DNA of 64,000 nt. It comes from Verrucomicrobiota bacterium. GTDB taxonomy: Bacteria; Verrucomicrobiota; Verrucomicrobiia; Limisphaerales; JAXMHQ01. This document shows, piece after piece, positions 4,224 through 64,000 of this stretch (position 1 is the first letter of the stretch; each line of letters begins with the position of its first letter). Below the pieces are notes generated by a model. The model was not told where the DNA came from. It did not search any database and worked only from the letters and a program-made list of their open reading frames with translations. The stretch is taken from assembly GCA_046346665.1 (NCBI GenBank), contig JAXMHQ010000001.1, forward strand, positions 131,896-195,895, given 5' to 3'. Position numbers and translations under genes: made by a program.

Positions 4224-4388
4224 CTCCAAAAACCTGGTAATGTCCTGATCTGCAATTCGGAAGATGTCCGCTGTACCAGGGCTGCGCCCCGCGCAGCCGG
4301 CACCGCGGAGCGGCGGCTTACCAACCCGTTTGCTCGGTCGAAAACACACCTTTCAACAATAGGATTACCAAAGGGATTACCAAAGATC
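4224..4388. repeat. word-periodic inverted repeat (GGTAATCC/CCAAAG family) with ~110-nt loop containing an inner GC hairpin
   Basis: Left ctccaaaaacctggtaatgtcctgatc. Right aggattaccaaagggattaccaaagatc. The inner hairpin is ggctgcgc-cc-cgcgcagcc. Confidence 0.65.
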
Positions 4389-4424
4389 TTGCGACTTTCC
4401 CGCGTCCCCCTACAGTAGAGTTTC

Positions 4425-5966: not shown

Positions 5967-6205
5967 ATGCCGGGCGAGATAGCATAAACCCGGCCCAGCA
6001 ACGGCCCGGACCAAAAAAAGGAAAATTCACCCCGGGAAATCTGCAGGAGAAAACCCGCCAATCTCAGTTCTGAGACGCAAAACAACCCCGCCCCGCCCTT
6101 CCCCGCCCGCCCGCCGGCATTCCGACTTGTCCCGGTTTCGGGCAGGAATCGTCTCAATCGATAACGCCTAACACCGAGGCCACGGTGCAGCCACCCGAAA
6201 ACAAC

Positions 6206-9277: not shown

Positions 9278-10237
9278 ATGCATATACCCGATGGATTTCT
9301 GGATGGCCGGACGGCGGCAGTGACCGGGGTGGTGGCGGCCGGGGGCGTGGGGCTGGCGCTGCGCCAAGTCCGGCGCGAGCTGCCGCCGCGGCGCATTCCC
9401 CTCCTCGGGCTGGCGGCGGCATTTTTGTTCGCGGCACAGATGGTGAATTTCCCGGTGCTCGGCGGCACGTCGGGCCACCTGGTCGGCGGCGTGCTGGTCG
9501 CCGCCCTGCTCGGACCCGGCGCCGCCATCGTCGTCCTCACCACGGTTCTCATCGTTCAGTGTTTCCTGTTCAACGACGGCGGCCTCCTGGCGCTCGGGGC
9601 AAACATTCTCAATATGGGCATCATTGGCGCCGGCGCCGGCTACGCCATCTACCGGGCGGTCGCCGCCGTGCTGCCCGGCACGCGCGGCCGCGTCACCGCC
9701 GTCGCCTTCGCCGGATGGTGCTCGACCGTTCTGGCCGCCATGGCCTGCGCCGGTGAACTTGCCGCCTCCGGCACCGTCGCCTGGTCGTCCGCGTTCACCG
9801 CCATGACGGTTACCCATATGCTCATCGGCGTCGGCGAAGGCCTGATCGGGGCGCTCGTTTACCTCGCCGTTCTCCGCACCCGTCCGGAGCTGGCCGAAAC
9901 AGGCGCGAACGGCGGCACCGGGGCCAGCCGCGGCTGGCGGGACATGCTGCGCTACGGCCTGCCGGCGGCGCTCGGCATCGCGCTGTTCGTCGCCCCGTTC
10001 GCCTGTCCGTGGCCGGACGGACTCGAAAAAGCCGCGGAACGGCTTGGATTCGCGCACCGGGAAGCGGCGCCCGCGCTCGCATCGCCCGCCGCCAACTACC
10101 AGTTTCCTGGAATCCATTGGGCCCCTGGCGCCACCGCCCTCGCCGGTGCCTCCGGCTGCCTCGTGGTGCTCGCATTGTCCTGGATGTTGGGCCGCTGGCT
10201 GGCACCGGAACCGCGCGATTACCCTCAGAAACAGTAG
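9278..10237 (+). CDS. cbiM: ECF-type nickel/cobalt transporter substrate-capture subunit CbiM/NikM fused to a PDGLE (CbiN/NikL-like) domain
   Basis: Canonical MHIPDGFL N-terminus and CbiM transmembrane core. The C-terminal WPDGLEKAAERLGF is the PDGLE-domain motif. Confidence 0.9.
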   Translation: MHIPDGFLDGRTAAVTGVVAAGGVGLALRQVRRELPPRRIPLLGLAAAFLFAAQMVNFPVLGGTSGHLVGGVLVAALLGPGAAIVVLTTVLIVQCFLFNDGGLLALGANILNMGIIGAGAGYAIYRAVAAVLPGTRGRVTAVAFAGWCSTVLAAMACAGELAASGTVAWSSAFTAMTVTHMLIGVGEGLIGALVYLAVLRTRPELAETGANGGTGASRGWRDMLRYGLPAALGIALFVAPFACPWPDGLEKAAERLGFAHREAAPALASPAANYQFPGIHWAPGATALAGASGCLVVLALSWMLGRWLAPEPRDYPQKQ

Positions 10238-36972: not shown

Positions 36973-37203
36973 ATGGCTCGTGAATTGCCGAAGATGTCTC
37001 AACAACAGCAGAAAACCATCCGGCCGACGCACGATGAGATTGCCCGGCGCGCCTATGAGATTTTCCTGGAACGCGGGAGCCCGGAAGGCCGGGACCAGGA
37101 GCACTGGTACGCGGCGGAGTCGGAACTTTCGGGTCTGACAGCGGCAAGACAGGCTCGGCCGGCGCCCGCGGCGAAACCGGGTGCTACGGCGCCGCGCAAG
37201 TGA
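36973..37203 (+). CDS. DUF2934 domain protein
   Basis: IARRAYEIFLERGSPEGRDQEHWYAAESEL is the DUF2934 core motif. Confidence 0.7.
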   Translation: MARELPKMSQQQQKTIRPTHDEIARRAYEIFLERGSPEGRDQEHWYAAESELSGLTAARQARPAPAAKPGATAPRK

Positions 37204-41641: not shown

Positions 41642-43825
41642 TCACTGGGGGTTGACCGACGCGGTGCCGGCGGTGGGAGCGGGCGCCGCGGGCGCTGTCT
41701 TGATGTCCGTCCCGAGCCGCTGCAAATAGGCGATCAGGGCGATGATTTCCCGGTCGGACTTCGCCGTCACGGACCCGGCCTTGAGGTTCGCCACCACTTT
41801 TTCCTGCTGGGCGGCGAGTTCCTTCTGCGCGGCGCCGTCTTCATAGCCGGTGGGGTAAGGCACGCCCACCTTGCGCAGCGCGCGAATGCGGGCCGACAGG
41901 ACGTCGGTGTTCAGCTTGTCCGTCAACAACCACGGGAAGCGCGGCATGATCGATCCCGGCGACGTGGAGCGCGGGTCGTCCATGTGATTGTAGTGCCACG
42001 CGTCGGGATACTTGCCCCCGATGCGCTGCAAATCGGGCCCGGTGCGCTTGGAACCCCACAGGAACGGATGATCGTAGACGAACTCGCCGGCCTTGGAGTA
42101 ATCGCCATAGCGCTCGGTTTCGGACCGGAACGGGCGGATCATCTGGGAATGGCAGCCGACGCAGCCTTCGCGGATGTAGATATCGCGGCCGAGGAGCTCG
42201 AGCGGCGTGTACGGTGTGACCGAGGTGATGGTGGGGATGTTGGATTTGACGAGGAACAGGGGGAGGATTTCGACCATGCCGCCGATGGCGACGGCGACGA
42301 AGGCGAGCACGGTGAAGAAGAGCGGTTTGCCTTCGAGCCAGCGGTGGCCGTGCCATTTGCTGTGAGGCGCGGCGGCGCCCGCGGCATGTTCGGGCGCGGC
42401 CACGGCCGCCTGGGCCTGTTCCTCGGGCAGGAACTGTCCGCTGCGCGCGGTCATGTAAAGGTTCACAACCATCATAAGCGCACCGGCAATGTAGAGGGAT
42501 CCGCCGATGGCGCGGAGTTCATACATCGGGATGATGTGCAGGACCGTGTCGAGGAAGTTTGGATACAGCAGGAAACCGTCCGCGTTGAACTGTTTCCACA
42601 TGAGGCCCTGGGTGACGCCGGAGGCATACATGGCGATGACGTAGAAGGCGATTCCGAGCAGGCCGGTCCAGAAATGGTAATTGGCCAGCTTGACCGACCA
42701 GAGGCGGGTGCGGTAGAGGCGCGGGAAGAGCCAGTAGAGCAGCGAGAAGGTCAGGAACCCGTTCCAGCCGAGCGCGCCGTTATGCACGTGGCCGATGCCC
42801 CAGTCGGTGTAGTGGGAAAGGGAGTTGACGGATTTGATGGACATCAGGGGTCCTTCGAGGGTGGCCATGCCGTAGGCGGTGACGGCGACGACCATGAACT
42901 TGAGCATGGGTTCCTCGCGGAGCTTGTTCCAGGCGCCGCGGAGGGTGAGCAGGCCGTTGAGCATGCCGCCCCAGGACGGCGCGATGAGCATGAGGGAGAA
43001 GACCATGCCGAGCGACTGCGCCCAGTCGGGGAGCGCGGTGTAGATCAGGTGGTGCGGCCCGGCCCAGATGTAGAGGAAAATCAGGGCCCAGAAATGGATG
43101 ATCGACAACCGGTAGCTGAACACCGGCCGGCCGGAGGCTTTGGGGAGGAAATAATACATCAGGCCGAGGTAAGGCGTGGTGAGGAAAAACGCGACGGCGT
43201 TGTGGCCGTACCACCATTGGACGAGGGCGTCCTGGACGCCGGCGTAGGCGGAGTAGCTCTTCCAGAGGCCGGCCGGCATTTCCATCGAATTGAAGATGTG
43301 CAGCATCGCGACCGTGAGGGCACTGGCGATGTAGAACCAGATGGCGACATACATGTGCTTCTCGCGCCGGACCGCCACCGTGCCGAGTAGGTTCACCGTG
43401 AACGCCACCCAGACAACCGCGATGGCGATGTCGATCGGCCATTCCAGTTCCGCGTATTCCTTGCTGCTGGTGATGCCCAGCGGAAGGGTGAGCGCGGCGG
43501 AGACGATGATTAATTGCCAGCCCCAGAAATTGAACCAGCTCAGGAAATCGCTGAACATCCGCGCCCGGCACAGGCGCTGGAGGGAATAGTAAATGCCCAT
43601 GAACATGCCGTTGCCCACGAACGCGAAGATCACCGCGTTGGTGTGCAGCGGCCGCAGCCGGCTGAAGGTGGTGTAAGGCAGGTTCAGGTTCAGCGCCGGG
43701 AAAAACAGCTGGCAGGCGATCAGCAGCCCGACACTGAATCCCACGATGCCCCACACGACCGTGGCGATCGCGAAGGCGCGGACGATTCGATTATCGTATT
43801 TAAACGTCTCTACGTTGGTGTTCAT
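41642..43825 (-). CDS. ccoNO: cbb3-type cytochrome c oxidase, fused subunits I and II (CcoN-CcoO)
   Basis: 727 aa. Heme-copper oxidase core (HFWALIFLYIW.GPHH, WGIGHVHNGALGW), then the CcoO part with CVGCHSQMIRPF heme c site. Confidence 0.95.
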   Translation of the reverse strand: MNTNVETFKYDNRIVRAFAIATVVWGIVGFSVGLLIACQLFFPALNLNLPYTTFSRLRPLHTNAVIFAFVGNGMFMGIYYSLQRLCRARMFSDFLSWFNFWGWQLIIVSAALTLPLGITSSKEYAELEWPIDIAIAVVWVAFTVNLLGTVAVRREKHMYVAIWFYIASALTVAMLHIFNSMEMPAGLWKSYSAYAGVQDALVQWWYGHNAVAFFLTTPYLGLMYYFLPKASGRPVFSYRLSIIHFWALIFLYIWAGPHHLIYTALPDWAQSLGMVFSLMLIAPSWGGMLNGLLTLRGAWNKLREEPMLKFMVVAVTAYGMATLEGPLMSIKSVNSLSHYTDWGIGHVHNGALGWNGFLTFSLLYWLFPRLYRTRLWSVKLANYHFWTGLLGIAFYVIAMYASGVTQGLMWKQFNADGFLLYPNFLDTVLHIIPMYELRAIGGSLYIAGALMMVVNLYMTARSGQFLPEEQAQAAVAAPEHAAGAAAPHSKWHGHRWLEGKPLFFTVLAFVAVAIGGMVEILPLFLVKSNIPTITSVTPYTPLELLGRDIYIREGCVGCHSQMIRPFRSETERYGDYSKAGEFVYDHPFLWGSKRTGPDLQRIGGKYPDAWHYNHMDDPRSTSPGSIMPRFPWLLTDKLNTDVLSARIRALRKVGVPYPTGYEDGAAQKELAAQQEKVVANLKAGSVTAKSDREIIALIAYLQRLGTDIKTAPAAPAPTAGTASVNPQ

Positions 43826-50894: not shown

Positions 50895-52364
<1,470 letters not shown>

Positions 52365-52439
52365 CGGCCGACATTAACGGAATTTCTTCCCGGCGGGCAA
52401 GCTTTTCAACCGCGCGACGCAACAACACGAACCGGCTCT

Positions 52440-52466
52440 CACCACGAAGACACGAAGGACGCGAAG
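52440..52466. repeat. orphan left-type arm of the CACGAAG family upstream of the sigma-54 activator gene
   Basis: caccacgaagacacgaaggacgcgaag. No complementary arm lies nearby. It is complementary (~22/27) to the right arm at 50850..50876 on the other side of the gene. Confidence 0.75.
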
Positions 52467-52554
52467 AAATCTCTTTTGAGGGAAGTGCTGCTCCCGATTT
52501 TGCTTTTGCGCGGCTGCCGGATTTCCGACGCCGCGCCCGATCTCGCGAAGGCGG

Positions 52555-52588
52555 CCATTCCGCACTCCGCGTTCCGCATTCCGCATTT
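52555..52588. repeat. orphan right-type arm of the AATGCGG family abutting the pilC stop
   Basis: ccattccgcactccgcgttccgcattccgcattt. About 29/31 identical to the reverse complement of 55418..55450, 2.8 kb away. Confidence 0.8.
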
Positions 52589-53798
52589 AGCGCGCCTGGT
52601 TGATGATGTCCGCCATTTTAAAGATGGGCAGGAACATACAGATCACCATGCCGCCGATGACGATGCCGAGGCCGACGATCAGGATGGGCTCGATCAGCGA
52701 GGTCAGGCCGGACAGGGTGGTTTCGATTTCCTCGTCCAGGAAGTCGGAGATGCGTTCCAGCATGTTGTCGATCTTGCCGGTTTGTTCGCCGGCCGTGATC
52801 ATGCGGATGATCATGCTGGGGAAAATGGGATGCTTGCTGAGCGCGGTGGAAATGCTTTCGCCGCGTTCGATGTCGGCGGAGGCGTCCTTGATGGCCTTCT
52901 CCATCACCACGTTGCCGACAGTCTGGGAAACGATCTGCAGCACTTCGAGGATCGGCACGCCGGAGCGGATCAGCGACGCCAGGGTGCGGGTGAATCGTGC
53001 AAGGCAGATCTTGTGGGCAATCATGCCGAAGATCGGGAGCTTGATGCGGCGCGAATCCCAGAACCAGCGGCCGGGCTTGGTCTTGATGAAGGCGAACCAG
53101 CCGTAAACGATGCCGGCGCCGGCGAGAACAAACAGGAGGATGAAGCGCTTGACGATTTCGCTCAGGTCGATGAGGAACTGGGTCGGACCGGGCAGCTTGG
53201 CGCCGAATCCCTGGTAAATTTCACCGAACACCGGCACGACCTTGATGAGCAGGAACGTGGTGATCAGGATAGCCACGATGGTGACGACCGTGGGATACAT
53301 CATCGCCGATTTGACCTTCTTGCGCAGGCGCGCAGCGTTTTCGAGGTAAATGGCCAGGCGCGCCATGATTTCGGCGAGCAAACCGCCCTTTTCACCGGCG
53401 GACACCATGGAATAATACAGGCGGTCGAAAACCTTCGGATGCTTCTGCAGCGCCTCGGAAAAGCTGTCGCCGGCTTCCACGCGGGCGCAAATGTCGCGAA
53501 TGACATCGCGCATCGCCTTGTTCGTGGTCTGTTCGGCGAGCGCCTGGAGCGACTGAACCATCGCAAGACCGGCGTCGATCATCGTGGCGAGTTGCCGGGT
53601 GAAAATGACCTGGTCGGCAAGGCTGACCCTGCCGCCGCTGGTGCGTCCTTTCTTGCCGACCTTTTCCTGGATGGAAACCACCAGGAGATTGCGGTTGAGC
53701 AGCGCCGTGATGGCCGCCTGCTCGGTGGCCGCTTCGACGGAGCTGCGGATCTCTCGGCCGGAGGCCGTCTCCCGCGCAATATACAAGTATGAAGGCAT
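52587..53798 (-). CDS. pilC: type II secretion system F-family / type IV pilus platform protein (PilC/GspF-like)
   Basis: 403 aa with duplicated T2SSF domains (LATMIDAGL..., LASLIRSGVPI...), a 3-TM layout, and the typical Y.A.....G N-terminus. Confidence 0.9.
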   Translation of the reverse strand: MPSYLYIARETASGREIRSSVEAATEQAAITALLNRNLLVVSIQEKVGKKGRTSGGRVSLADQVIFTRQLATMIDAGLAMVQSLQALAEQTTNKAMRDVIRDICARVEAGDSFSEALQKHPKVFDRLYYSMVSAGEKGGLLAEIMARLAIYLENAARLRKKVKSAMMYPTVVTIVAILITTFLLIKVVPVFGEIYQGFGAKLPGPTQFLIDLSEIVKRFILLFVLAGAGIVYGWFAFIKTKPGRWFWDSRRIKLPIFGMIAHKICLARFTRTLASLIRSGVPILEVLQIVSQTVGNVVMEKAIKDASADIERGESISTALSKHPIFPSMIIRMITAGEQTGKIDNMLERISDFLDEEIETTLSGLTSLIEPILIVGLGIVIGGMVICMFLPIFKMADIINQAR

Positions 53799-54108
53799 AG
53801 CTTATCGAAACGGCCTCCCGCAGGTTCGCAACCTGGTTGTTCAGTTCAGGACGGCTCGTTCGCGGCATGTTGAGCAGGGTTTATTCCACTCATTCACAAA
53901 ACCTCATCCAAGCTCCCGCCACGGCGCGTTTTGCGGTTTTTCAGTGGCGCTCCCGGCTGCTTCTGCCCCAAGCCCGGACAGTTCTGTACCGGTCCGCGGG
54001 AAGAATCTTGTTGTCAAAGCCCCCGGTTTGGCTTTGAATCGGATCCATCAACCGGGGCCGGCCCGCCCGGCGGGTAACTGTTCAGGAACCGGGACGGATC
54101 CAGCCCCT

Positions 54109-54124
54109 TGGCGCAGAAGATGCC
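54109..54124 (+). promoter_or_regulatory. candidate sigma-54 (-24/-12) promoter for porin paralog 1
   Basis: TGGCGCagaagATGCC. The GG and GC dinucleotides sit at the consensus spacing of TGGCAC-N5-TTGCW, 16-31 nt upstream of the possible starts. Confidence 0.35.
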
Positions 54125-54139
54125 CATTATAAGTTTATT

Positions 54140-55417
54140 ATGTCGGAGGAACGCATGAGAGTGAACAAATGGACGCTGGGCCTCGCCGCCGCGGGCGTCG
54201 TCAGCCTGGGATCCGCGGTCCAGGCCGAGGAAACTTCAAACACCGTCCTCACCGGCCTGTCCTCAACCACCTTGAGCGGCTACGTCGATACGTCCGCCAT
54301 GTGGAACTTCGGCACCGGCAACGCCAACCCCGTCCCGGTCCGGTTCAACCAGGGCAAACAGGACGGATTCAACCTCAACGTCGTCCAGCTCTCCCTCGCC
54401 CGGCCCCTGTCCGAAAATAACTGGGCCGCCGGATACCGCGTCGACCTCTGGATGGGACCCGACGCCGCCCAGCTCGACACTGCCAGTCTCCAGTCCGGTT
54501 TCACCCAGGGCGATTTAGCCATCCGCCAGGCCTACGTCGCCCTCCGCACCCCCCTCGGCAACGACATCGAATGGAAGATCGGCGTTTTTGACAGCATCAT
54601 CGGCTACGAATCCGTCGCCTCCCCGAGCGATCCCAATTACACCCGCTCCTACGGCAACACCCTCGAACCCACCTCGAACACGGGCCTGCTGGCGTCCTAC
54701 CGCTTCTGCGAGGAATTCAACATCTCCGCCGGCATCGCCAATACCGTCGGACCTAACATCAACCAGCGCGCATTCAACACCCCCGGCGTCCCGCCGCTCA
54801 CCAATCCCCAGGCCGAGTCCTTCAAGACTTACATGGGATCGTTCACGGTGGTCGCCCCCGACAGCCTCGGATTCCTGGCGGGATCCAGCCTCTACGGCGG
54901 CATCGTGAATGGATTCAATGACGCGGTGAACGAAACCGCGTATCAGAACAACAGCACCAGCTATTACCTCGGCGCCACCTTCGTCACCCCCGTCAACGGG
55001 CTCCGCTTCGGCACCGCCTTCGACTGGCTCCATATCCATAACTGGTCCGAAGTCCTCGCCTCCGCCCCCGTCCCGCTTTTCGGCGGCGACGGCAATAGCT
55101 GGTCCCTGGGACTCTACGGCTCCCTGCAGGCTACGGAAGCCTTCAGCATCCATCTCCGCGGCGAATACGTGAACGACAACGCCGGATTCTTCTTCGGCCC
55201 CTTCGGCGAAGACCAGACCGGCAACGTCGTGGAACGCGCCCAGGTGTTCGAAGTGACCACCACCGCCCAATACGATCTCTGGAAAAACGTGATCAGCCGC
55301 GCGGAATTCCGCTGGGATCACATCGAACACGGCAACGCCTTCGGCGGCACCATCCCCGGCTCCCCCATCTACGCCAACGCCTACATGCTGGCCGCAAATA
55401 TCATCTACCAGTTCTGA
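54140..55417 (+). CDS. outer-membrane beta-barrel porin (BBP2/OmpL-like), paralog 1
   Basis: Signal peptide ending AVQA, alternating beta-strand pattern, C-terminal aromatic (IIYQF). About 45% identical by eye to 55804..57075. Alternative start at ATG 54155. Confidence 0.75.
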   Translation: MSEERMRVNKWTLGLAAAGVVSLGSAVQAEETSNTVLTGLSSTTLSGYVDTSAMWNFGTGNANPVPVRFNQGKQDGFNLNVVQLSLARPLSENNWAAGYRVDLWMGPDAAQLDTASLQSGFTQGDLAIRQAYVALRTPLGNDIEWKIGVFDSIIGYESVASPSDPNYTRSYGNTLEPTSNTGLLASYRFCEEFNISAGIANTVGPNINQRAFNTPGVPPLTNPQAESFKTYMGSFTVVAPDSLGFLAGSSLYGGIVNGFNDAVNETAYQNNSTSYYLGATFVTPVNGLRFGTAFDWLHIHNWSEVLASAPVPLFGGDGNSWSLGLYGSLQATEAFSIHLRGEYVNDNAGFFFGPFGEDQTGNVVERAQVFEVTTTAQYDLWKNVISRAEFRWDHIEHGNAFGGTIPGSPIYANAYMLAANIIYQF

Positions 55418-55698
55418 GGAATGCGGAATGCGGAGTGCGGAGTGCGGAATCCTGGCGGAATGCGGGGTTCACGGATATAACCATCCTTTGATCCATTGAT
55501 GCCGCTCCATTATAGCGGTTTAACATAAACCGTAGCCGCAGGTAGGGACGCCGCGCTGCGGCGTCCGCGGTCGGCGCAGCGCGCCGACCCTACCTTTTGC
55601 GGCTACGACATTTCTTGAGCCGCTCTAAGGACAAGAACGAGCAGGGCTCCCCTGTTGCGCCGCCAGGATTCCGCACTCCGCACTCCGCACTCCGCGTT
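55418..55698. repeat. word-periodic inverted repeat (GAATGCGG/GAGTGCGG family) abutting the porin-1 stop, with a ~200-nt loop carrying the 91-bp repeat
   Basis: Left ggaatgcggaatgcggagtgcggagtgcggaatcctggcg. Right cgccaggattccgcactccgcactccgcactccgcgtt. Confidence 0.85.
55537..55627 (+). repeat. 91-bp structured repeat, copy 2 (fuller copy; outer stem extends to 55531..55600)
   Basis: Identical to 33926..34016. Here cgtagccgca (55531-55540) additionally pairs with tgcggctacg downstream of the ggtaggg...ccctacc stem. Confidence 0.95.
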
Positions 55699-55803
55699 TA
55701 AAATGGCGGGGCGGGCGGCGTCTGAATGGACAAACAGACGCGCCCGCCCGCGGGATCACCGGAGATACTGGCGATCAAATTCGATCGCCAGCTCCCGGGT
55801 GGT

Positions 55804-57075
55804 TTAGAACATGTAGATGATGTTCAGAGTCAGAGTTTCGGCGTTGGCCTTGCTCGGATTGCCAGGGGTCGCCGGAGTCGTGCTGAAATCGGCGGCCACC
55901 GTGCCACCGAAGGGCTTGTCATCCGTCAAGCAATGATCCCAGCGGAATTCCACGCGGCTGATCACGTTCTTCCACAGGGAATAATCCAGCGTTTCGGTGA
56001 GCGACATGAGCTGGTTGCAGCTCCCCTGCGAGACGTAGCCGAACGAGCCGTTCTCGCCGTTGGCATAGGAGCCGTTGCTGCCCCAACCGAAGTCGAGGCG
56101 GCTGCCGCTCTTCAGTTTCTCGGTGATCTGCCACATCAAGTAGGTGCCCAGGGCATTCGCGTAGGAGTTCTGGAACACGCTGCTGGTGGTCAGGTCGTAG
56201 GCCACACCCAGGCTCAGGCCCGTGATCGGCAACGGCGTCGTGCCGCCGATATACAGGTTGCGCTGGTTGTAATCCGTGCCGCCGCTCGAAGCGCCGCCGC
56301 CCGACACGTTCGGAATCACGGCCGGGAAATGACCGCCGTCCGTCCAGCCGGCCGAGAGCGTCGCGCCCTTCATGAACCCGAAACTCTCGGGAGCCGTGAA
56401 CGAAGCCATCACCAGGTAGGCCTTCTTGGATTCGACACCGTTCTTCACGTCGACCTGGTTGTTGTAACCGGCCTGGTTGCCGATGCCCGCCTGCAGGGCG
56501 AAGCAGTCAGTCACCTTGTAGGTGCCCGCAATGCCCGTGTGCGCGGAGGATTCAATGTAGAACCCGTAGGAACGGCTGAAATTCGGATCCTTGTAGGTGT
56601 CGTAGGATTCGTAGCCGTTGAACGTTCCGAATTGGCCCATGTGCAGCTCCAGGCCGTTGCCAATCGGGACGCGCAGGTTCACATACGCCTCGTTAAAGGC
56701 GAAATCCGTCGTGCCGGACGAGGCAAAAATCCCCGTGCCGCGCTGCGCAGCGCCGGGCCCCATCAGCATCTGGAAATGATAACCCGAGGCCCACTGGGAA
56801 TCGTCCAGCGGCTTGTCCAGCGTCAGGCTCACCACGTCAAGGTTGAAGCCGTCCATCATGGTCGGACCATCATACACGCGGCCCGGCATGTTCGCGTTGC
56901 CGGTTCCCATGTTCCAGATCGCGGAGGTATCCACATAACCGCTCAGCGTCGTGGCGGAAAGGGATGTCAGCACGGAATTCGGTTTCGCAGCCGGAGCCTC
57001 ATCAGCCTGTGCCAAAGCAGGCGCACTGATCAGGCCGGCGCTCAACAGGACTTGTGTCCATTTACTCATGTTCAT
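55804..57075 (-). CDS. outer-membrane beta-barrel porin (BBP2/OmpL-like), paralog 2
   Basis: Signal peptide ending ALAQA. Shared blocks with paralog 1 (TTLSGYVDTSA.WN.GTGNAN, DGFNL.VV.L.L..PL, LWKNVISR.EFRWDH). C-terminal IIYMF. Confidence 0.75.
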   Translation of the reverse strand: MNMSKWTQVLLSAGLISAPALAQADEAPAAKPNSVLTSLSATTLSGYVDTSAIWNMGTGNANMPGRVYDGPTMMDGFNLDVVSLTLDKPLDDSQWASGYHFQMLMGPGAAQRGTGIFASSGTTDFAFNEAYVNLRVPIGNGLELHMGQFGTFNGYESYDTYKDPNFSRSYGFYIESSAHTGIAGTYKVTDCFALQAGIGNQAGYNNQVDVKNGVESKKAYLVMASFTAPESFGFMKGATLSAGWTDGGHFPAVIPNVSGGGASSGGTDYNQRNLYIGGTTPLPITGLSLGVAYDLTTSSVFQNSYANALGTYLMWQITEKLKSGSRLDFGWGSNGSYANGENGSFGYVSQGSCNQLMSLTETLDYSLWKNVISRVEFRWDHCLTDDKPFGGTVAADFSTTPATPGNPSKANAETLTLNIIYMF

Positions 57076-57160
57076 AGTTCTTGTATAGGTTTGGTTTCTA
57101 GTTCTTCTCTAACTTCTAGCTTCGTGCGTCAACCGCACAACTCGGTTCGCCGCGCCACCC

Positions 57161-57176
57161 AGCAAAAACGGTGCCT
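57161..57176 (-). promoter_or_regulatory. candidate sigma-54 (-24/-12) promoter for porin paralog 2
   Basis: The minus strand reads aGGCACcgtttTTGCT, a near-consensus GGCAC-N5-TTGCT, ~85 nt upstream of ATG 57075. Confidence 0.5.
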
Positions 57177-57230
57177 CGCCCAAAAAATGCGCCACACCGC
57201 TCGGCCCTGGCCCGATGGCCCGGTTCAATT

Positions 57231-57269
57231 GCCGAAGTGTAAACACTTGCTCCGCCGAAGTGCAACCAC
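57231..57269. promoter_or_regulatory. tandem 16-nt direct repeat (one copy containing a 14-bp palindrome) between the divergent porin-2 and urtA promoters; candidate activator binding sites
   Basis: gccgaagtgtaaacac (57231-57246, containing AAGTGTaaACACTT) and gccgaagtgcaaccac (57254-57269), spaced 23 bp start to start. Confidence 0.3.
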
Positions 57270-57448
57270 CGTTTTGACCCGCAATTTTTCCGTGCCCACA
57301 AGCCCCACGACTCCACACCTCAACCCGACCCGCGCTGTTCAGGTTTGACCGCGATGCGCAGAATGCAACTGGCGATTTTCCCATCGCCCGCCCGCACGCG
57401 CGCTCCATTCCCCTGCAAATGCTGCATCCGACCCGCGCCGGCTCCCCG

Positions 57449-57464
57449 TGGCATATCGGGTGCT
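57449..57464 (+). promoter_or_regulatory. candidate sigma-54 (-24/-12) promoter for urtABCDE
   Basis: TGGCATatcggGTGCT with consensus GG/GC spacing, ~125 nt upstream of urtA ATG 57589. Confidence 0.45.
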
Positions 57465-57588
57465 GAAGCGCCGCTGGACCAGCCCGGCAACACGAACACA
57501 GTCCTCGTGCGCCCCGATGAAACGCGGGAACGCCGGCCGATCCGAGAAACCAAACGAACCCAGAACTGAACTGAACGCAAACGGAACC

Positions 57589-58884
57589 ATGAAAACCAAA
57601 CCCTCCGCTTTTAAGAAATTACTGCTCCTGGCAAGCCTAACGGCCGGGCTCGCCCTCTCATCCCAGGCCGCAGAAACCATCAAGGTCGGCATCCTCCACT
57701 CGCTCAGCGGCACCATGGCCATCAGCGAAACTTCCCTCCGCGATGTCCTCCTCTTCGCCTTCGACGAAATCAACAAGTCCGGCGGCATCAAGGTCGACGG
57801 CAAAAGCTACATGATCGAACCCGTCATCGTCGACGGCGCCTCGAACTGGCCCCTCTTCGCCGAAAAAGCCAAACAATTGCTCGAACAGGACAAGGTCGCC
57901 GTCGTCTTCGGATGCTGGACGTCCGTGAGCCGCAAATCCGTCCTCCCCGTGTTCGAAAAAGACAACGGACTCCTCTTCTACCCGGTCCAGTATGAAGGCG
58001 AGGAGTTGTCGAAAAACATCTTCTACACCGCCGAAGCCGTCAACCAGCAGGCCACCCCAGCCATCGATTACCTGCTCGCCAACGGCAAAAAGAAATTCTA
58101 CCTGATCGGCACCGATTACGTCTATCCCCAGACCACCAACCTGATCCTCTACAAATACCTCCTCCTCCACGGCATTCCCCTCGAAAACATCGGCGGCGGA
58201 CTGCGCAAGGACGAATCCGGCAAGGTCATCTCCGCCGGCAAATACACCCCCTTCGGCCACACCGATTACCAGCAGATTGTCGCCGAAATCAAACAGTTCT
58301 CCGCCGGCGGCGACGCCTGCGTGATCAATACCATCAACGGCGATTCCAACGTCCCCTTCTTCAAGGAAATCGCCGCCGCCGGCCTCACCCCCGCCGAATG
58401 CCCCGTCGTCTCCTTCAGCCTCGCCGAAGATGAACTCCGCGCCCTGCCCACCAAGGACCTCGTCGGCGAACTCGGCTGCTGGACCTACTTCATGTCCCTC
58501 CCCGGCGCCGAAAACAAAGCCTTCCTCAAAGACTGGGACGCCTGGCTCAAAGCCCAGAAATACCCCGGCGTGATCAAGGAAAAACGCGCCGTCGACAGCC
58601 CCATGGTCCTCTCCTATAACGGCGTTTACCTCTGGAAAAATGCCGTCGAAAAAGCCAACTCCTTCAACGTCGACAAAGTCCGCGAAACCCTCGAGTCCGG
58701 CACCATCTCCTTCGACGGCCCCGGCGGCAAAAACACGATGCAGAAAAACCATCACACCACCAAGAATGTCTACATCGGCGAGACCCGCGCCAACGGCCAG
58801 TTCAAAATCCTCAAGTCCTACGACAACATCCCCGGCGAACCCTTCCTTCTGAAGGGCCTCGACGAACAATTGGCCGCGAAATAA
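57589..58884 (+). CDS. urtA: urea ABC transporter substrate-binding protein
   Basis: Signal peptide, then [34 protein letters not shown] blocks characteristic of UrtA. The start is at ATG 57589. Confidence 0.9.
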
Positions 58885-58957
58885 GGCCCCCCACATTCCC
58901 CATCTCGGTTAACCGGGAGGGGTGGACCTGATGACTCCACCCCTCCCTATTCCGCGA

Positions 58958-60709
58958 ATGAAATCCCACGTGATCGCGATCCTCGCCCTCCTCCTGGCCT
59001 CCGCCTGGACCTGCTCCGCCCAGCCGTCCGCCTCTCCCGCGACGGATTCCGCCGTCCGGCAGAAACTCGCCCGCACCCTCGCCGCCGAACCCGCCGAACA
59101 AAAACAATTGCTCGCCGATCTCGCCGACTCCGGATCCCGAACCGCCCGCGATATCCTCATCGCCTGGACCCGCGACAACGTCTACCTCTGGGATTCACCC
59201 GGCGGCGCCAAAATTCCCGTCACCCTCGAGGACGCCACCGACGCCGACGGCAAGGCCCGCGCCCTCCGCGTCGATAACAACGAATTTGCCCGCGACGATC
59301 ACGGCGCCGAACTCCGCTTCGCCGCCAGCGACCTCGCACCCGTCGACACCGACATGCAGCTCCGCGCCGCCATCCAGCAAACCCTCGACGCCCTCGGACT
59401 TTCCGATCCCGACCCCGACGCCCGGCGCTCCGCCATCCAGAAACTCGGCAACACCGGGAAGGAAAAAAATCTGCCGCTCCTCAAAAACCGCCTGTCCCGC
59501 GAAACCGACGCCTCCGTCCGCCGCAGCCTCGAGGAGGCCGTCGCCATGATCGGTCTCAACAGCAGCGACCGCCAGGTCCAGATCAACGCCGTCCGTGACC
59601 TCGCCCGCCTCAATTCCATCGGCAGCCTCGACGCCCTGAAAAAACTGGCCGCCGCGTCCCAGACCTCCTCCGCCCTCGCCCAGGCCGCCAACGCCGCCGT
59701 CTACTCCATCAACCAGCACATCATGTGGGTGAATTTCTGGGGCACACTCTTCCGCGGACTCAGCCTCGGATCCATCCTCCTCGTCGTCGCCCTCGGGCTC
59801 GCCATCACCTTCGGCCTCATGGGCATCATCAACATGGCACACGGCGAAATGATCGCCATCGGCGCCTACACCTGCTACGTCGTCCAAAACCTCTTCGGCA
59901 CCGGGTTCGGATTCAGCATCAACCTGCCCTTCTCCATCTTCGGCCACCCGCTCGGGTTCGGCCTCCACCTGCCCGGCCTCAACACCACCGGCCTGCTCTA
60001 CGAAAGCTACTTCCTGTTCGCGCTCCCCCTCAGCTTTCTCACCGCCGCCCTCGCCGGTATCCTCATCGAACGCACCGTCATCCGGTTTCTCTACCGCCGC
60101 CCCCTCGAATCCCTCCTCGCCACCTGGGGCGTCTCGCTCGTCATGCAGCAATGCTTCCGAATGGTCTTCGGCGCCAATAATGTCCAGGTCAATTCGCCAT
60201 CCTGGCTGCTCGGACATTTCACGGTCTACGACATCCTCTTCGGATACAACCGCGTCTTCGTCATCGCCTTCGCCGCCCTCATCGTCCTCGGCACCTGGCT
60301 GCTCCTCACCCGCACCCCGCTCGGCCTCCTGATCCGCGCCGTCATGCAAAACCGCAACATGGCCGCCTGCATGGGCGTCCGCACCCAGCGCGTCAACCTC
60401 CTCACCTTCGCCTTCGGATCCGGCCTCGCCGGCCTCGCCGGCGCCTTCCTGTCCCAAATCGGCAACGTCGGACCCAGCCTTGGCCAAACCTACATCGTCG
60501 ACAGCTTCATGACCGTCGTCGTCGGCGGCGTCGGCAGCATCGTCGGCACCGTCTGCTCCGCCGTCGGCATCGGCACCTCCGACCAGGTCCTCCAACAGGT
60601 CACCGGCTCGCCCGTCACCGGTAAAATCGTCGTGCTCGTCGCCATCATCCTCTTCCTCCAATGGAAACCCGGCGGCCTGTTCTCCATCCGCAGCCGAAGC
60701 CTCGACTGA
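58958..60709 (+). CDS. urtB: urea ABC transporter permease UrtB with ~270-aa N-terminal signal-peptide/HEAT-like repeat extension
   Basis: The C-terminal 300 aa are a LivH/UrtB-type permease (NMAHGEMIAIGAY..., GLAGLAGAF...). The N-terminal part has a signal peptide and repeated D..RR.A...LG..G......L helical repeats. Confidence 0.9.
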   Translation: MKSHVIAILALLLASAWTCSAQPSASPATDSAVRQKLARTLAAEPAEQKQLLADLADSGSRTARDILIAWTRDNVYLWDSPGGAKIPVTLEDATDADGKARALRVDNNEFARDDHGAELRFAASDLAPVDTDMQLRAAIQQTLDALGLSDPDPDARRSAIQKLGNTGKEKNLPLLKNRLSRETDASVRRSLEEAVAMIGLNSSDRQVQINAVRDLARLNSIGSLDALKKLAAASQTSSALAQAANAAVYSINQHIMWVNFWGTLFRGLSLGSILLVVALGLAITFGLMGIINMAHGEMIAIGAYTCYVVQNLFGTGFGFSINLPFSIFGHPLGFGLHLPGLNTTGLLYESYFLFALPLSFLTAALAGILIERTVIRFLYRRPLESLLATWGVSLVMQQCFRMVFGANNVQVNSPSWLLGHFTVYDILFGYNRVFVIAFAALIVLGTWLLLTRTPLGLLIRAVMQNRNMAACMGVRTQRVNLLTFAFGSGLAGLAGAFLSQIGNVGPSLGQTYIVDSFMTVVVGGVGSIVGTVCSAVGIGTSDQVLQQVTGSPVTGKIVVLVAIILFLQWKPGGLFSIRSRSLD

Positions 60710-60711
60710 TC

Positions 60712-61890
60712 ATGATGACCCGATTTTCAAGCCGGTCCGAATGGTGGGGCGTGGGCGCGGCCCTCGCCGTGCTGCTGGTCCTCCTGCCCGCGCTCAACGC
60801 GTTCACACCTGAAACCAGCTTCCTCCACGTCAGCAATTTCACCATCAATCTCTACGGCAAATACCTCTGCTACGCCCTGCTCGCCATCAGCGTCGATTTG
60901 CTCTGGGGTTACACCGGCCTGCTCAGCCTCGGCCAGGCCCTCTTCTTCACCCTCGGCGGCTACATGATCGGCATGCACCTCATGCGCCTGATCGGCAACC
61001 TCGGCCAGTATCACCAGGAAATCCCCGATTTCCTCGTCTTTCTCGGCTGGAACACCCTGCCCACCTTCTGGCGCCCGTTCAGCAGCCTCGCCTTCGCCCT
61101 GCTCATGGCCATCCTCCTCCCCGGCACCCTCGCCCTCGCCTTCGGCTACCTCGCGTTCCGTTCCCGCATCCGCGGCGTCTACTTTTCCATCCTCACCCAG
61201 GCCCTCACCTACGGCGCCTGCCTCCTGTTCTTCCGCAACAGCCTCCTCATGGGCGGCAATAACGGGTTCACCGATTTCAAATTCCTCCTCGGCCACGACC
61301 TCCGCTCCCCCGGCACCCAGCGCGCCCTCTACATGGCCACCGTCATCGCCCTGCTCGCCGTCTACCTCGGCTGCCGCTGGCTCAGCCGGTCCAAGTTCGG
61401 CCTCGTCCAACGCGCCATTCGCGACAGCGAAAACCGCGTCCTGTTCAGCGGCTACGCCGCCGGCAATTTCAAACTGTTCGTCTTCGTCCTCGCCGCCATC
61501 ATCGCCTCCATCGGCGGCGTGCTCTATGTCCCCCAGGTCGGCATCATCAACCCCGGCGAAATGCAGCCCGACAAATCCCTCGAAGCCGTCGTCTGGGTCG
61601 CCGTCGGCGGCCGCGCCACCCTGCTCGGCCCCATCCTCGGCGCGTTCGGCGTCAATGCCCTCAAAAGCTGGGCCACCCGCGCCTACCCCGACCTCTGGCT
61701 CCTGTTCCTCGGAGGACTCTTCGTCCTGGTCACCCTCTTCATGCCCAAAGGAATCGCCGGCATCCCCGCCCAGATCCACAGCCTCAGCCAACGATTCATG
61801 GCCCGGCGCCGCACCACCCCCGATCCCAAAAGCCCCCCCGCCCTCGTCACACCCGCCGCCAACCCCGGCACCCCCGTCGAAACCGAATGA
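60712..61890 (+). CDS. urtC: urea ABC transporter permease UrtC
   Basis: LivM-type permease (LLWGYTGLLSLGQALFF..GGY). The ATG lies 2 nt after the urtB stop. Confidence 0.9.
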   Translation: MMTRFSSRSEWWGVGAALAVLLVLLPALNAFTPETSFLHVSNFTINLYGKYLCYALLAISVDLLWGYTGLLSLGQALFFTLGGYMIGMHLMRLIGNLGQYHQEIPDFLVFLGWNTLPTFWRPFSSLAFALLMAILLPGTLALAFGYLAFRSRIRGVYFSILTQALTYGACLLFFRNSLLMGGNNGFTDFKFLLGHDLRSPGTQRALYMATVIALLAVYLGCRWLSRSKFGLVQRAIRDSENRVLFSGYAAGNFKLFVFVLAAIIASIGGVLYVPQVGIINPGEMQPDKSLEAVVWVAVGGRATLLGPILGAFGVNALKSWATRAYPDLWLLFLGGLFVLVTLFMPKGIAGIPAQIHSLSQRFMARRRTTPDPKSPPALVTPAANPGTPVETE

Positions 61891-62645
61891 TCCCCAAGGA
61901 ATTCATCCTCATGCTCGAAGACGTCCACAAGACCTTCGACGGTTTCAAAGCCATCTCCAACCTGACGTTCTACATGGATGACGGCGAACTCCGCGTCATC
62001 ATCGGACCCAATGGCGCCGGCAAAAGCACCATGCTCGACCTCATCACCGGCCGCACCCGGCCGGACAAAGGCCGCATCGAATTCGGCAGAAACACCGACC
62101 TGACCGAACTGAACGAATACCAGATCAACCGCCTCGGCATCGGCCGCAAATTTCAAACCCCCTCGGTCTACATCGACCACACCGTCGCGGAAAACATCTG
62201 GCTCTCCCTCAAAGGCGGCCGCTCCGTCTGGAGCACGCTGCTCGCCCGCCAATCGTCCGACCAGCAGGACCGCATCCAGGACGTGCTGAAAACCGTGGGA
62301 CTCGCCGGCTGGGCCGATTCCAAGGCGGGCGCCCTGAGTCACGGCCAGAAGCAATGGCTGGAAATCGGCATGCTGCTCGCCCAGGACCCGAAGCTCCTGC
62401 TCGTCGACGAACCGGCCGCAGGCATGACCGACGAGGAAACGCACAAGACCGGCGAACTGCTCCTCAGCCTCGAAGGCAAACACAGCATCGTCGTGATCGA
62501 ACACGACATGACCTTCGTCCGCCAGCTCGCCCGCCGCGTCACCGTCCTCCACCAGGGCACCGTCCTCTGCGAAGGCTCCGTCGACGAAGTCCAAAACAAC
62601 GAAAAAGTCATCGAGGTCTACCTTGGCCGAAAAAAGAAACATTAA
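61887..62645 (+). CDS. urtD: urea ABC transporter ATP-binding protein UrtD
   Basis: Walker A GPNGAGKST, signature LSHGQKQWLEIG, Walker B LLLVDEP. The start overlaps the urtC stop. Confidence 0.9.
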   Translation: MIPKEFILMLEDVHKTFDGFKAISNLTFYMDDGELRVIIGPNGAGKSTMLDLITGRTRPDKGRIEFGRNTDLTELNEYQINRLGIGRKFQTPSVYIDHTVAENIWLSLKGGRSVWSTLLARQSSDQQDRIQDVLKTVGLAGWADSKAGALSHGQKQWLEIGMLLAQDPKLLLVDEPAAGMTDEETHKTGELLLSLEGKHSIVVIEHDMTFVRQLARRVTVLHQGTVLCEGSVDEVQNNEKVIEVYLGRKKKH

Positions 62646-62671
62646 CCCCCCGCGCAACCTCGTTCCCCGGC

Positions 62672-62709
62672 TACAACCTTTTTGTCGTACGTACGACACA
62701 AAGGTTGCA
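62672..62709. repeat. 38-bp palindromic element, copy 2 (urtD-urtE intercistronic gap)
   Basis: tacaaccttttTtgtcgtac|gtacgacaCaaaggttgca. Same core as 10266..10305, with the mismatch at the same stem position. Confidence 0.9.
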
Positions 62710-62738
62710 CAGTCTGGCTGCGCGGATCCCTTGCACGC

Positions 62739-63434
62739 ATGCTGAACGTCTCCAGTCTCTCGGTTTCCTACGACGGCTCCCGCATCCTCCGGGGCGTGGA
62801 CCTCGCCGTGCCCGAACGCAGCCTCGTCTGCCTCATGGGCCGCAACGGCGTCGGCAAAACCACCACGCTCAAATCCATTGTCGGCCTCGTCAAACCCGAC
62901 GCCGGATCCGTCCGGCTCGCGGGCGAGGAACTGGCGGGATTGCCCCCCGAGGAGCGCGCCCGACGCGGGCTCGGTTATGTGCCGCAGGGACGCGACATCT
63001 TTCCGCACCTCACCGTCTGGGAAAACCTGAAAATCGGCCTGCTCGTGCGGGGCACGCGCCCCAACGGACAGGTGGACCGGGTCCTCGAACTCTTTCCCGT
63101 GCTCAAAGACATGCTTCAGCGCAAAGGCGGCGTGCTCAGCGGCGGCCAGCAACAGCAACTCGCCATCGCCCGCGCCCTGCTCACGGATCCCAAGGTGCTC
63201 ATCCTCGACGAACCCACCGAAGGCATCCAGCCCAACATCATCGACCAGATCGGCGACACCCTGCTCAAGATCAAGGGCGAAGGCCGGCTCAGCATCCTGC
63301 TGGTGGAACAATACCTCGATTTCTGCCGCTCCATCGGCGACAGCTTCTTTATCATGGACCGCGGCGCCGTCGTCGCCAGCGGCCCCATCGGCGGCCTCAA
63401 CGAGGAAACCGTCCGGCAACACCTGACCGTTTAG
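62739..63434 (+). CDS. urtE: urea ABC transporter ATP-binding protein UrtE
   Basis: Walker A GRNGVGKTT, signature LSGGQQQQLAIARAL, Walker B ILILDEP. ATG 62739; the upstream ORF-track residues are encoded by a palindromic repeat. Confidence 0.9.
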   Translation: MLNVSSLSVSYDGSRILRGVDLAVPERSLVCLMGRNGVGKTTTLKSIVGLVKPDAGSVRLAGEELAGLPPEERARRGLGYVPQGRDIFPHLTVWENLKIGLLVRGTRPNGQVDRVLELFPVLKDMLQRKGGVLSGGQQQQLAIARALLTDPKVLILDEPTEGIQPNIIDQIGDTLLKIKGEGRLSILLVEQYLDFCRSIGDSFFIMDRGAVVASGPIGGLNEETVRQHLTV

Positions 63435-63460
63435 CCATTCACGGTTTGCGGCGAAGAAAC

Positions 63461-63518
63461 GTCCGCAGTTTCCACAGATCTCGCAGAAAATCTGCGTCCG
63501 TCTGCGAAATCTGCGGAC
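63461..63518 (+). terminator. word-periodic hairpin (CGCAGA family) after the urtE stop; terminator-like
   Basis: gtccgcag-tttccacagatctcgcagaaaatctgcgtccgtctgcgaaat-ctgcggac. The outer 8-bp stem is perfect, with inner tctgcg/cgcaga words. Confidence 0.55.
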
Positions 63519-63694
63519 AAGTGCCCCCTGCCGCCTTGTAGTCACCCTGTTCAAATCCGCTCAGGCACCTGACCACTTCAGCGCACCTCCGCGCGACTCA
63601 ATTCAGTCGCCAACAATTTCCCGGCCGCTTGATTTTGCTTCCTGCCTCGCAAATGGAATCATTCGCCGGGCAGGAGCCACGGCCCGCAGCCTCG

Positions 63695-63710
63695 TGGCAC
63701 GTGCGCTGCT
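63695..63710 (+). promoter_or_regulatory. candidate sigma-54 (-24/-12) promoter upstream of the partial ORF at the window end
   Basis: TGGCACgtgcgCTGCT is a near-consensus match (TGGCACG-N4-TTGCW), ~190 nt upstream of ATG 63898. Confidence 0.5.
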
Positions 63711-63897
63711 CTCCAGCGCGCATGACCATCATCCTGACCTCGCGCGCGTCGCAGACGTTCGATGATCGTCGTTTCTTCCAGCGGCTCACGCTGATCGACA
63801 TCTGCTGCGGACCGCCGGACCGGGATTGATTTGCCGTCCGCGCCGGTTCGAACAATTCCCAACACCTTTAACGCAGTCAATCCCTGTTCCTGTACCT

Positions 63898-64000
63898 ATG
63901 GGTTTCGGTCATTCACATTCAAAGAAACGCCCCGCCCAACGCCGGGTCCGGTCGGTCACCCGCGAAGCGCAGCACGATCTCGCGCACCTGGAGGGCAAAG
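63898..64000 (+). CDS. possible 5' end of an unidentified gene (runs off window)
   Basis: ATG at 63898 opens a frame (MGFGHSHSKKRPAQRRVRSVTREAQHDLAHLEGK...) that stays open to the window end, ~190 nt downstream of a strong sigma-54-like promoter. No family recognised from 34 aa. Confidence 0.25.
   Translation, partial: MGFGHSHSKKRPAQRRVRSVTREAQHDLAHLEGK

Follow-up and report, generated by a model that had tools for sequence, protein, structure and literature searches.

In Proteobacteria, urtABCDE, ureABC and speB are controlled by NtrC and sigma-54 (PMC5343134). There, urtA is preceded, at about 60–130 nt, by a −24/−12 promoter, and a high-affinity urea importer is made when nitrogen is scarce. 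Here, we consider a stretch of 64,000 nt from a Verrucomicrobiota bacterium (contig JAXMHQ010000001.1, positions 131,896 to 195,895; the whole of it is called the window), in which a urtABCDE operon stands between a divergent porin gene and the first codons of a predicted guanidinase gene. To our knowledge, transcriptional control in Verrucomicrobia is almost unstudied, and in full-text literature searches, no description of urea uptake under sigma-54 came to light for this phylum. We consider it probable, at about 0.78, that three sigma-54 promoters drive a nitrogen-scavenging module, conserved in Verrucomicrobia, in the right-hand region of the window, and that a block of genes to its left is separate. 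What is new in this reading is the extension of sigma-54 control of urt, already known in Proteobacteria, to Verrucomicrobia with BBP2 porins, as well as a predicted control region for a guanidinase operon that combines a sigma-54 promoter, an upstream element and a leaderless small open reading frame (ORF). Thus, a mode of control known from Proteobacteria would be conserved in an abundant phylum of soil and freshwater.

The transporter encoded in the window belongs to the same family as that of Proteobacteria. The locus nevertheless differs from the proteobacterial ones in its phylum, with no NtrB/NtrC pair identified, and in that the unit includes the gene of a BBP2 porin (PF07642), which is either divergent, under a promoter of its own, or opens the operon. 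A reading of the intergenic regions showed no NtrC boxes (TGCACC-N5-GGTGCA-like), although no pattern search was run. UrtB is also unlike its proteobacterial counterparts, as this protein of 595 aa has an N-terminal extension of ~270 aa with HEAT repeats (Pfam HEAT_2, residues 124–207) before the permease domain; the extension can be aligned in most other Verrucomicrobial urt loci and is thus a feature of the lineage. As for the porin, FmdC-type SAP porins are outer-membrane porins for urea and short-chain amides that are placed next to urea genes. A porin has also been reported beside the urea uptake genes of comammox Nitrospira (PMC6311188). The window shares with comammox Nitrospira a dedicated outer-membrane channel gene in that position; in contrast to the FmdC/SAP porins, the family here is BBP2, whose urea specificity is putative. 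Finally, recognition of guanidine as a source of nitrogen and energy in the environment is recent, and the known guanidine genes are controlled by riboswitches; in particular, known guanidinase genes sit behind guanidine-I (ykkC) riboswitches.

A preliminary description of this DNA had proposed a cluster of sigma-54-type promoters in front of two porin genes, urtABCDE and the gene behind it, next to a gene for a sigma-54 activator. The four 16-mers named there do lie upstream of these genes, at the positions and on the strands given in Table 1 and with exact GG-N10-GC spacing. Likewise, a check of the window's genes with Pfam and NCBIfam upheld the identities of the activator (REC-AAA+(GAFTGA)-HTH), both porins and urtABCDE. 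The genes from 57589 to 63434 encode a urea ATP-binding cassette (ABC) transporter, with a UrtA-type binding protein, two permeases and two ATPases in order. UrtB reaches 382 bits against TIGR03409 (cut-off 250) and UrtA 482.4 bits against TIGR03407, just short of the cut-off of 492.75; UrtA is 54–58% identical to its proteobacterial matches. Both BBP2 porins score above the Pfam gathering score for PF07642 and have N-terminal signal-like sequences.

The promoter motifs were ranked with two position weight matrices (PWMs), a generic one for sigma-54 and a lineage one that was trained on 33 Verrucomicrobial sites, none of them from the window. Among the 1282 GG-N10-GC sites of the window, the generic PWM places the porin-2 site first, the guanidinase site second and the urtA site fifth. 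Promoter zones (non-coding and in the correct orientation) cover 5.4% of strand positions and contain three of the five sites that score 12 bits or more (binomial p = 0.0015). With the lineage PWM, the urtA site is first, the guanidinase site second and a site upstream of the T2SS-F gene third. The third-ranked generic match, at 36974, was discarded, as it spans the start codon of a small gene.

Several observations weigh against the reading of these motifs as promoters. Matches to TGGCACN5TTGCW with up to two mismatches number 19 in the window, where 29 are expected, and the five sites that reach 12 bits with the generic PWM compare with 4.8 ± 2.1 in first-order Markov simulations. The frequencies of the generic PWM were set after the compilation of Barrios et al. 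(1999) and not taken from a file. The lineage PWM penalises the porin-2 site for an A at −26, common to the porin-2 orthologues, and places it 9th. In addition, no enhancer motif shared by the urtA and porin-2 promoters was found, and there is no RpoN box within the 64-kb window, so rpoN itself was not seen; the intact GAFTGA activator encoded in the window implies, for its part, that the genome uses sigma-54.

As the total number of motifs is that expected by chance, the case rests on their placement and conservation. It is here that a purely fortuitous origin has to be weighed, in which GC-rich intergenic DNA would have yielded the motifs by chance and transcription of the genes would start from sigma-70-type promoters. 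The count of matches, at or below expectation, fits such an origin, as does the presence of high-scoring sites within genes (at 48418 and 42340, besides the one across a start codon at 36974). Nevertheless, it does not account for the concentration of three of the five best sites in so small a fraction of positions, all three in one functional cluster, nor for the fact that orthologues retain each of them amid intergenic DNA that has diverged, nor for the same arrangement across the phylum and in a proteobacterial control. A simple sigma-70 scan also found nothing before these genes, which is weak evidence in this phylum. We thus regard chance as very improbable. The background check by PWM scan that had been called for, run here on the window, accordingly gave a divided answer: the number of motifs equals chance, whereas the rank and placement of the porin-2, urtA and guanidinase sites stand out. 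By rank, placement and conservation, three of the four promoters first claimed hold; that of porin 1, with 7.2 bits and less than 6 with the lineage PWM, does not. That the promoters of porin 2, urtA and the guanidinase operon are real appears well supported, by every computational test available.

Conservation can be followed in detail at a Verrucomicrobial locus, L001, whose UrtA is 84% identical to that of the window. Its porin gene, also divergent from urtA, encodes an orthologue with 56% identity to porin 2 and is preceded by AGGCATTGATTTTGCT, the top PWM match of that locus; TGGCACATCGGGTGCT stands before urtA and TGGCATGTCCACTGCT after urtE. Outside the urtA promoter, the intergenic DNA between porin 2 and urtA has diverged between the window and L001, and this promoter is the sole significant conserved island in a word-7 local comparison (19 nt, E = 2.8e-4). 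The layout of three promoters is repeated in a metagenomic contig, L085, with AGGCACCGATTCTGCT before porin 2 and TGGCATATCGAGTGCT before urtA. In the window, the transcript of porin 2 is predicted to start near 57150 and that of urtA near 57475, which would give 5′ untranslated regions of ~75 and ~114 nt, respectively.

The wider distribution of this arrangement was assessed in a contig scan with UrtA, which yielded 23 Verrucomicrobial and 57 proteobacterial urt loci. The latter served as a positive control: in 72% of them, a site of at least 12 bits lies within 400 nt upstream of urtA, mostly at −57 to −132, against a background of 1.9%. The PWM thus works, because it recovers the sites of proteobacterial urtA loci. 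At the same threshold, 14 of the 23 Verrucomicrobial loci have a site (background 8.9%), located either ~105–125 nt before urtA or before the porin or other outer-membrane gene just upstream of it. For instance, the urtA sites of L001, L004, L022 and L023 are spaced as in the window, and those of the last three are strong, at −105 to −112. A BBP2 porin gene adjoins urtA, just upstream, in 13 of the 23 loci, often with a sigma-54 site before the porin. On both counts, a porin accompanied by urt behind a sigma-54 motif is a recurrent Verrucomicrobial arrangement, and the earlier suggestion of a dedicated porin alongside urt in this group is borne out. As a regular member of the urt unit, the BBP2 porin becomes a candidate outer-membrane route for urea.

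A further motif occurs in several other Verrucomicrobia. It is a strong sigma-54 match (up to 17 bits) that lies ~1250 nt into the locus, just after a urtA copy (L003 11316, L006 11312, L009 11307, L010 2275, L012 11288 and L014 5242). In L003, L012 and L014, it falls in the spacer between urtA and urtB, while in L006 and L009, urtBCDE lies upstream of it. The window, where the gap between urtA and urtB is 37 nt, has no counterpart.

Attempts to find elements to which an activator could bind near urtA yielded leads and rejected candidates. For urtA and porin 2, a weak TGTTCA(GG) was all that recurred; it lies ~100–125 nt upstream of the urtA promoter in L001 and L085, with weak statistics. Of the 13 occurrences of CTGTTCA in the window, three are in the three promoter regions, and this heptamer also recurs upstream of urtA in L001 and L085; having been found post hoc and being statistically weak, it is kept as a lead only. 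The k-mers most enriched upstream of 27 Verrucomicrobial sigma-54 sites turned out to be the conserved 3′ end of the urtA coding sequence and were rejected. The same applies to CGCAG-N(3-12)-CTGCG palindromes, which are found in the window (63482) and L001 (9660) and in no other loci.

The gene behind urtE is cut by the end of the window, and its identity comes from its orthologues. Its N-terminus matches 498-aa arginase-family proteins in L001 and L083–L089. The syntenic orthologue in L001 matches GdmH of Synechocystis (7ESR/7OI1) at 4e-155 and the guanidinase of N. inopinata (9FEK) at 1e-152, and its matches to guanidinobutyrase (3nio, 9.7e-46) and to agmatinases (no better than about 5e-35) are far weaker; the identities of entries 7ESR/7OI1 and 9FEK are from PMC11410670. 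The gene is thus predicted to be a guanidinase orthologue (GdmH-like) whose product is urea, which agrees with the nitrogen-scavenging theme proposed for the region. It shares with the two characterised enzymes the family and, by prediction, the conversion of guanidine into urea and ammonia, with a tie to urea metabolism. By contrast, the orthologues (L001 16559–18055 and others; 63898–64000 in the window) have a His-rich N-terminal extension of ~120–170 aa (MGFGHSH...HHEAPGH...HHH), which neither the solved GdmH nor the solved Nitrospira enzyme possesses and which may bind metal (Ni). The genes that follow the guanidinase gene are a creatininase-family gene and then a GlnA-like one in L001 and L084, a creatininase-family gene and then an aldo-keto reductase gene in L086, and an NMT1-type ABC transporter and UreD directly after it in L085. 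Urea uptake would in this way be linked to a guanidinase operon.

The promoter of this operon was compared in eight aligned loci (the window, L001, L083, L085, L086, L087, L088 and L089). It is kept in all eight at a fixed spacing to the ATG of a small ORF, and its motif is the best PWM match of every contig that has this ORF. Transcription in the window is predicted to start near 63721. Further upstream, a partly palindromic element of 35 nt occupies the same relative position in 8/8 loci, ~130–165 nt before the promoter. A PWM made from it finds a single site each in the window, L001, L083, L085 and L086, and nothing in the urtA and porin-2 regions. This element is a candidate enhancer (upstream activating sequence) for a dedicated activator; being private to the guanidinase promoter, it argues against one regulator for all promoters, and the single common regulon first proposed is not upheld. 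A second, weaker copy of it lies ~60 nt upstream in L001 and L086.

In contrast to the riboswitch-controlled guanidinases, the window has no Rfam match to a guanidine riboswitch (ykkC, mini-ykkC, ykkC-III or guanidine-IV) at the gathering threshold; at E ≤ 1, the 5′ leaders within 53700–64000 contain no known RNA, and seven related loci likewise gave no guanidine riboswitch. In place of a riboswitch there are the sigma-54 promoter, the upstream element and a probably leaderless ORF of 35 codons. A peptide- or activator-based alternative of this kind would widen the recognition of guanidine metabolism in metagenomes. Within two of the related guanidinase operons, there is an orphan Rfam motif, the Acido-Lenti-1 RNA (RF01687; gathering score 37): in L085, at 10014–10059 (+) with 50.5 bits, upstream of the ABC-transporter permease gene, and in L088, at 4369–4414 (+) with 48.5 bits, upstream of a further gene behind the guanidinase gene.

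The small ORF was apparent as a block of 70 nt, 89% identical between the window and L001, just downstream of the guanidinase promoter. It is present at L001 16382–16489, L083 7001–7108, L085 7001–7108, L086 2449–2556, L087 2156–2260, L088 2417–2551 and L089 435–542, and homologues (P0001–P0006) occur in several metagenomes, with ~22 more representatives at 50% clustering. Two multi-repeat "homologues", P0127 and P0148 (~44–53% identity), look like unrelated tandem-repeat proteins and were set aside. In every contig the order is constant: the sigma-54 motif, the ATG of the small ORF 11–12 nt after the −12 GCT and, after 62–99 nt, the guanidinase gene. The core SQTFDDxxFFQRLTLIDICCGPP is invariant across the eight aligned loci and differs at few positions in distant representatives, and no Pfam family matches the small ORF. 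Within the 23 codons of the core, 3, 1 and 16 sites vary at the first, second and third codon positions, respectively, and the codons differ pairwise in 195 synonymous and 36 non-synonymous cases. Because variation is found mostly at third codon positions, the small ORF is translated and under purifying selection at the protein level.

As sigma-54 transcription begins ~12 nt beyond the GC, the small ORF would have its ATG at +2 or +3, and the mRNA is probably leaderless, as judged from this spacing. In this respect, the small ORF would differ from leader and ribosome-arrest peptides such as TnaC, SpeFL, SecM and ErmL, since its translation would begin at the 5′ end of a sigma-54 transcript, and it has no sequence similarity to them. 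Nevertheless, it resembles these short regulatory ORFs in its length, in a strictly conserved C-terminal peptide that ends in proline codons, and in its position directly before a catabolic gene. No terminator or anti-terminator and no covarying structure were detected in the leader between the promoter and the guanidinase gene: in RNAalifold, the covariation term is zero, with a compensatory change in 1 of 30 predicted pairs, so a consensus structure of the leader is not supported. The Pro-Pro codons can pair with the AUGGG start region of the guanidinase gene in this prediction, and a regulatory role of such pairing is speculation. It can be imagined that the small ORF is a cis-regulatory sensor peptide, translated from the 5′ end of the sigma-54 transcript and acting, for instance, through ribosomes that pause on the CCGPP codons in response to a ligand or to proline; it would then stand in Verrucomicrobia for the guanidine-I riboswitch of cyanobacteria and Nitrospira. 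We hold this idea to be rather doubtful. If true, the peptide would found a new family of leader peptides, and a sigma-54 promoter would for the first time be described together with a leaderless ORF of regulatory function. In any case, the promoter, the upstream element and the 35-codon ORF lie within 300 bp and form a simple testable system.

The left-hand part of the region contains porin 1, the T2SS-F gene and the gene for the sigma-54 activator, an enhancer-binding protein (EBP). The preliminary description pointed to a single regulon, in which this adjacent EBP, as the equivalent of NtrC, would activate all four promoters, including that of porin 1. Some features agree with this: the protein is intact, with REC, GAFTGA and HTH_8, and matches the NtrC model TIGR01818 over its full length (436 bits); at 75–87% identity in more than 100 clusters, it is highly conserved in the lineage, as expected of a core regulator; and a strong sigma-54 site precedes a porin-1 orthologue beside the EBP block in a relative (L093, below). 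Its score is nevertheless short of the TIGR01818 cut-off (558.6) and below all NCBIfam equivalog cut-offs, including those of NtrC and AtoC, and its neighbours in the window include no gene for a histidine kinase or PII and no glnA.

Synteny also speaks against this assignment. In three relatives whose activator is 78–83% identical, the block consists of a BBP2 porin gene, divergent from a T2SS-F gene followed by the genes for the EBP and fructose-bisphosphate aldolase, and no urt genes were called within the ~6.6–8 kb examined on either side of it; another relative (P0021, 81%) keeps the EBP and aldolase genes only. Conversely, the flanks of the 23 Verrucomicrobial urt loci (up to 10 kb, less at contig ends) contain no sigma-54 activator, with one weak receiver-domain match as the sole result of a tblastn search. 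The window is thus the junction of an EBP block and a urt block, and adjacency is not evidence of regulation. If we add the private element of the guanidinase promoter, absent from the urtA region, and the background quality of the porin-1 site, control of all four promoters by this EBP is unlikely. It is probably not the urt regulator and would rather be an orphan EBP.

Which porin belongs to which block can be seen in L093, where the porin divergent from the T2SS-F–EBP–aldolase genes is 50% identical to porin 1 and 39% to porin 2. Together with synteny, these identities assign porin 1 to the EBP block and porin 2 to the urt block. The 864-nt intergenic region between the porin and T2SS-F genes of L093 also contains, at ~6080–6260, a remnant similar to the start of a BBP2 porin gene, with a signal peptide and ...WNFGTGNANTP, which suggests a past porin duplication or decay. 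A metagenome scan for close relatives of porin 1 gave two matches only, at ~40% identity, and was uninformative.

As to promoters, TGGCATAAACATTGCC, a strong sigma-54 site of 13.7 bits and the top match of the L093 locus, precedes the ATG of the porin-1 orthologue there by ~87 nt, and genes of the porin-1 type can thus be sigma-54-dependent. In the window, the 16-mer TGGCGCAGAAGATGCC lies 31 nt before the ATG and has no positional orthologue, the L093 site being different and stronger. It ranks 40th of the 1282 sites, with 47 sites at that level, and lacks the consensus base at three positions with 84–96% conservation in the lineage. As a promoter it is unsupported, since its match is indistinguishable from background. 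It may instead be a regulator-binding site or a decayed promoter, with porin 1 expressed from another promoter, and to this we give about even odds. The weak match and the short distance to the ATG are consistent with it, as is the resemblance of CTGTTCAGG-N22-GGCGCAGAAGATGC here to CTGTTCAGG-N11-TGCGCAGAATGC in the upstream region of urtA. On the other hand, each of the shared 8–9-mers is no more than chance would produce between two intergenic regions of such length, and the good motif of the L093 orthologue leaves room for a weak but functional promoter. The pair in question, CTGTTCAGG followed by GCGCAGAA(g)ATGC, occurs at 54078–54124 upstream of porin 1, where it overlaps the 16-mer, and at 57335–57369 upstream of urtA; it may be a site for a regulator, with weak statistics.

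By contrast with porin 1, the T2SS-F gene has a good candidate promoter, 75 nt upstream of its ATG, which was overlooked in the preliminary description and would be a fifth sigma-54 promoter. It is ranked 6th by the generic PWM, an orthologous site, TGGAATAAGGACTGCT, lies upstream of T2SS-F in L093 and L094, and its −24 part is the best-conserved island of the intergenic region.

These observations can be brought together in a model of the region. The holoenzyme of sigma-54 is unable to open DNA alone, and each promoter thus needs an AAA+ enhancer-binding protein. One promoter would read leftward into the BBP2 outer-membrane porin and another rightward into urtABCDE, the high-affinity urea ABC importer; for both, the signal is likely to be nitrogen limitation, conveyed by an NtrC-like activator encoded elsewhere. 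Behind urtE, the third promoter would give a transcript that opens with the ATG of the 35-codon leader ORF and continues, ~70 nt later, into a predicted Ni-type guanidine hydrolase (guanidine to urea and NH3), which in relatives is followed by creatininase-family, GlnA-like, ABC-transporter or urease-accessory genes. A distinct activator probably serves this promoter from the 35-nt element, ~140 nt upstream. The left block, from porin 1 and T2SS-F to the EBP and the aldolase, would be a separate unit with its own sigma-54 promoter before T2SS-F. The coordinates of all these features are collected in Table 1.

Table 1. Genes, promoter motifs and other elements of the region (window coordinates).
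Feature	Position	Strand	Basis
REC-AAA+(GAFTGA)-HTH_8 activator (EBP)	50895–52364	−	Pfam; GAFTGA motif intact
PilC/GspF-like T2SS-F gene, upstream of EBP	52587–53798	−	Pfam T2SSF, NCBIfam
T2SS-F sigma-54 promoter candidate, TGGAATAAACCCTGCT	53873–53888	−	PWM rank and conservation in L093/L094
Porin-1 16-mer, −24/−12 match, TGGCGCAGAAGATGCC	54109–54124	+	7.2 bits, weak
BBP2 porin 1	54155–55417	+	Pfam PF07642, 4.7e-42
BBP2 porin 2, divergent from urtA	55804–57075	−	Pfam PF07642, 6.1e-31
Porin-2 sigma-54 promoter (predicted), AGGCACCGTTTTTGCT	57161–57176	−	15.4 bits; orthologous sites
urtABCDE sigma-54 promoter (predicted), TGGCATATCGGGTGCT	57449–57464	+	12.0 bits; conserved island
urtA	57589–58884	+	Pfam, NCBIfam
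urtB, N-terminal HEAT extension	58922–60709	+	Pfam, NCBIfam
urtC	60661–61890	+	Pfam
urtD	61887–62645	+	Pfam
urtE	62682 or 62739 (start) to 63434	+	Pfam
Conserved, partly palindromic element, TGCnnnnTTGTAaTCAnnCTGtTCAAATCnnnnCA	63529–63563	+	Common to 8 loci
Guanidinase-operon sigma-54 promoter (predicted), TGGCACGTGCGCTGCT	63695–63710	+	13.6 bits; 8 loci
35-codon small ORF, MTIILTSRASQTFDDRRFFQRLTLIDICCGPPDRD*	63722–63829	+	Homologues, codon-level selection
Guanidinase-like arginase-family gene, first 34 codons (MGFGHSHSKK...), cut by window end	63898–64000	+	N-terminus versus orthologues

Between these features, there are several repeats. The convergent spacer between the two porin genes (55418–55698) is an element of ~280 bp that looks like a miniature inverted-repeat transposable element or a repetitive extragenic palindrome (REP). 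Its terminal inverted repeats of 39 nt, 95% complementary, consist of GCGGAGT/GCGGAAT heptamers and enclose long hairpins. The same run of heptamers is also found at 52560–52584, between T2SS-F and the activator. Heptamer matches number 9, versus 0.02 expected. An ORF in the gap between T2SS-F and the activator (52374–52586) was rejected as a gene, its Arg-rich product being a translation of heptamer repeats. Right after the urtE stop codon, at 63455–63515 (+), there is a cluster of CGCAG/CTGCG palindromes, for instance CGCAGAAAATCTGCG, flanked by GTCCGCAG...CTGCGGAC, which may serve as a terminator or represent a REP-like structure, and CGCAGATTATCTGCG, at 13595, resembles it. The remainder of the window consists of unrelated housekeeping genes. 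At 41642–43825 (−), a single ORF of 727 aa combines COX1 (CcoN) and FixO (CcoO) domains in a fused cbb3 oxidase subunit, and it is adjoined by genes for FixP, FixG and a P-type ATPase.

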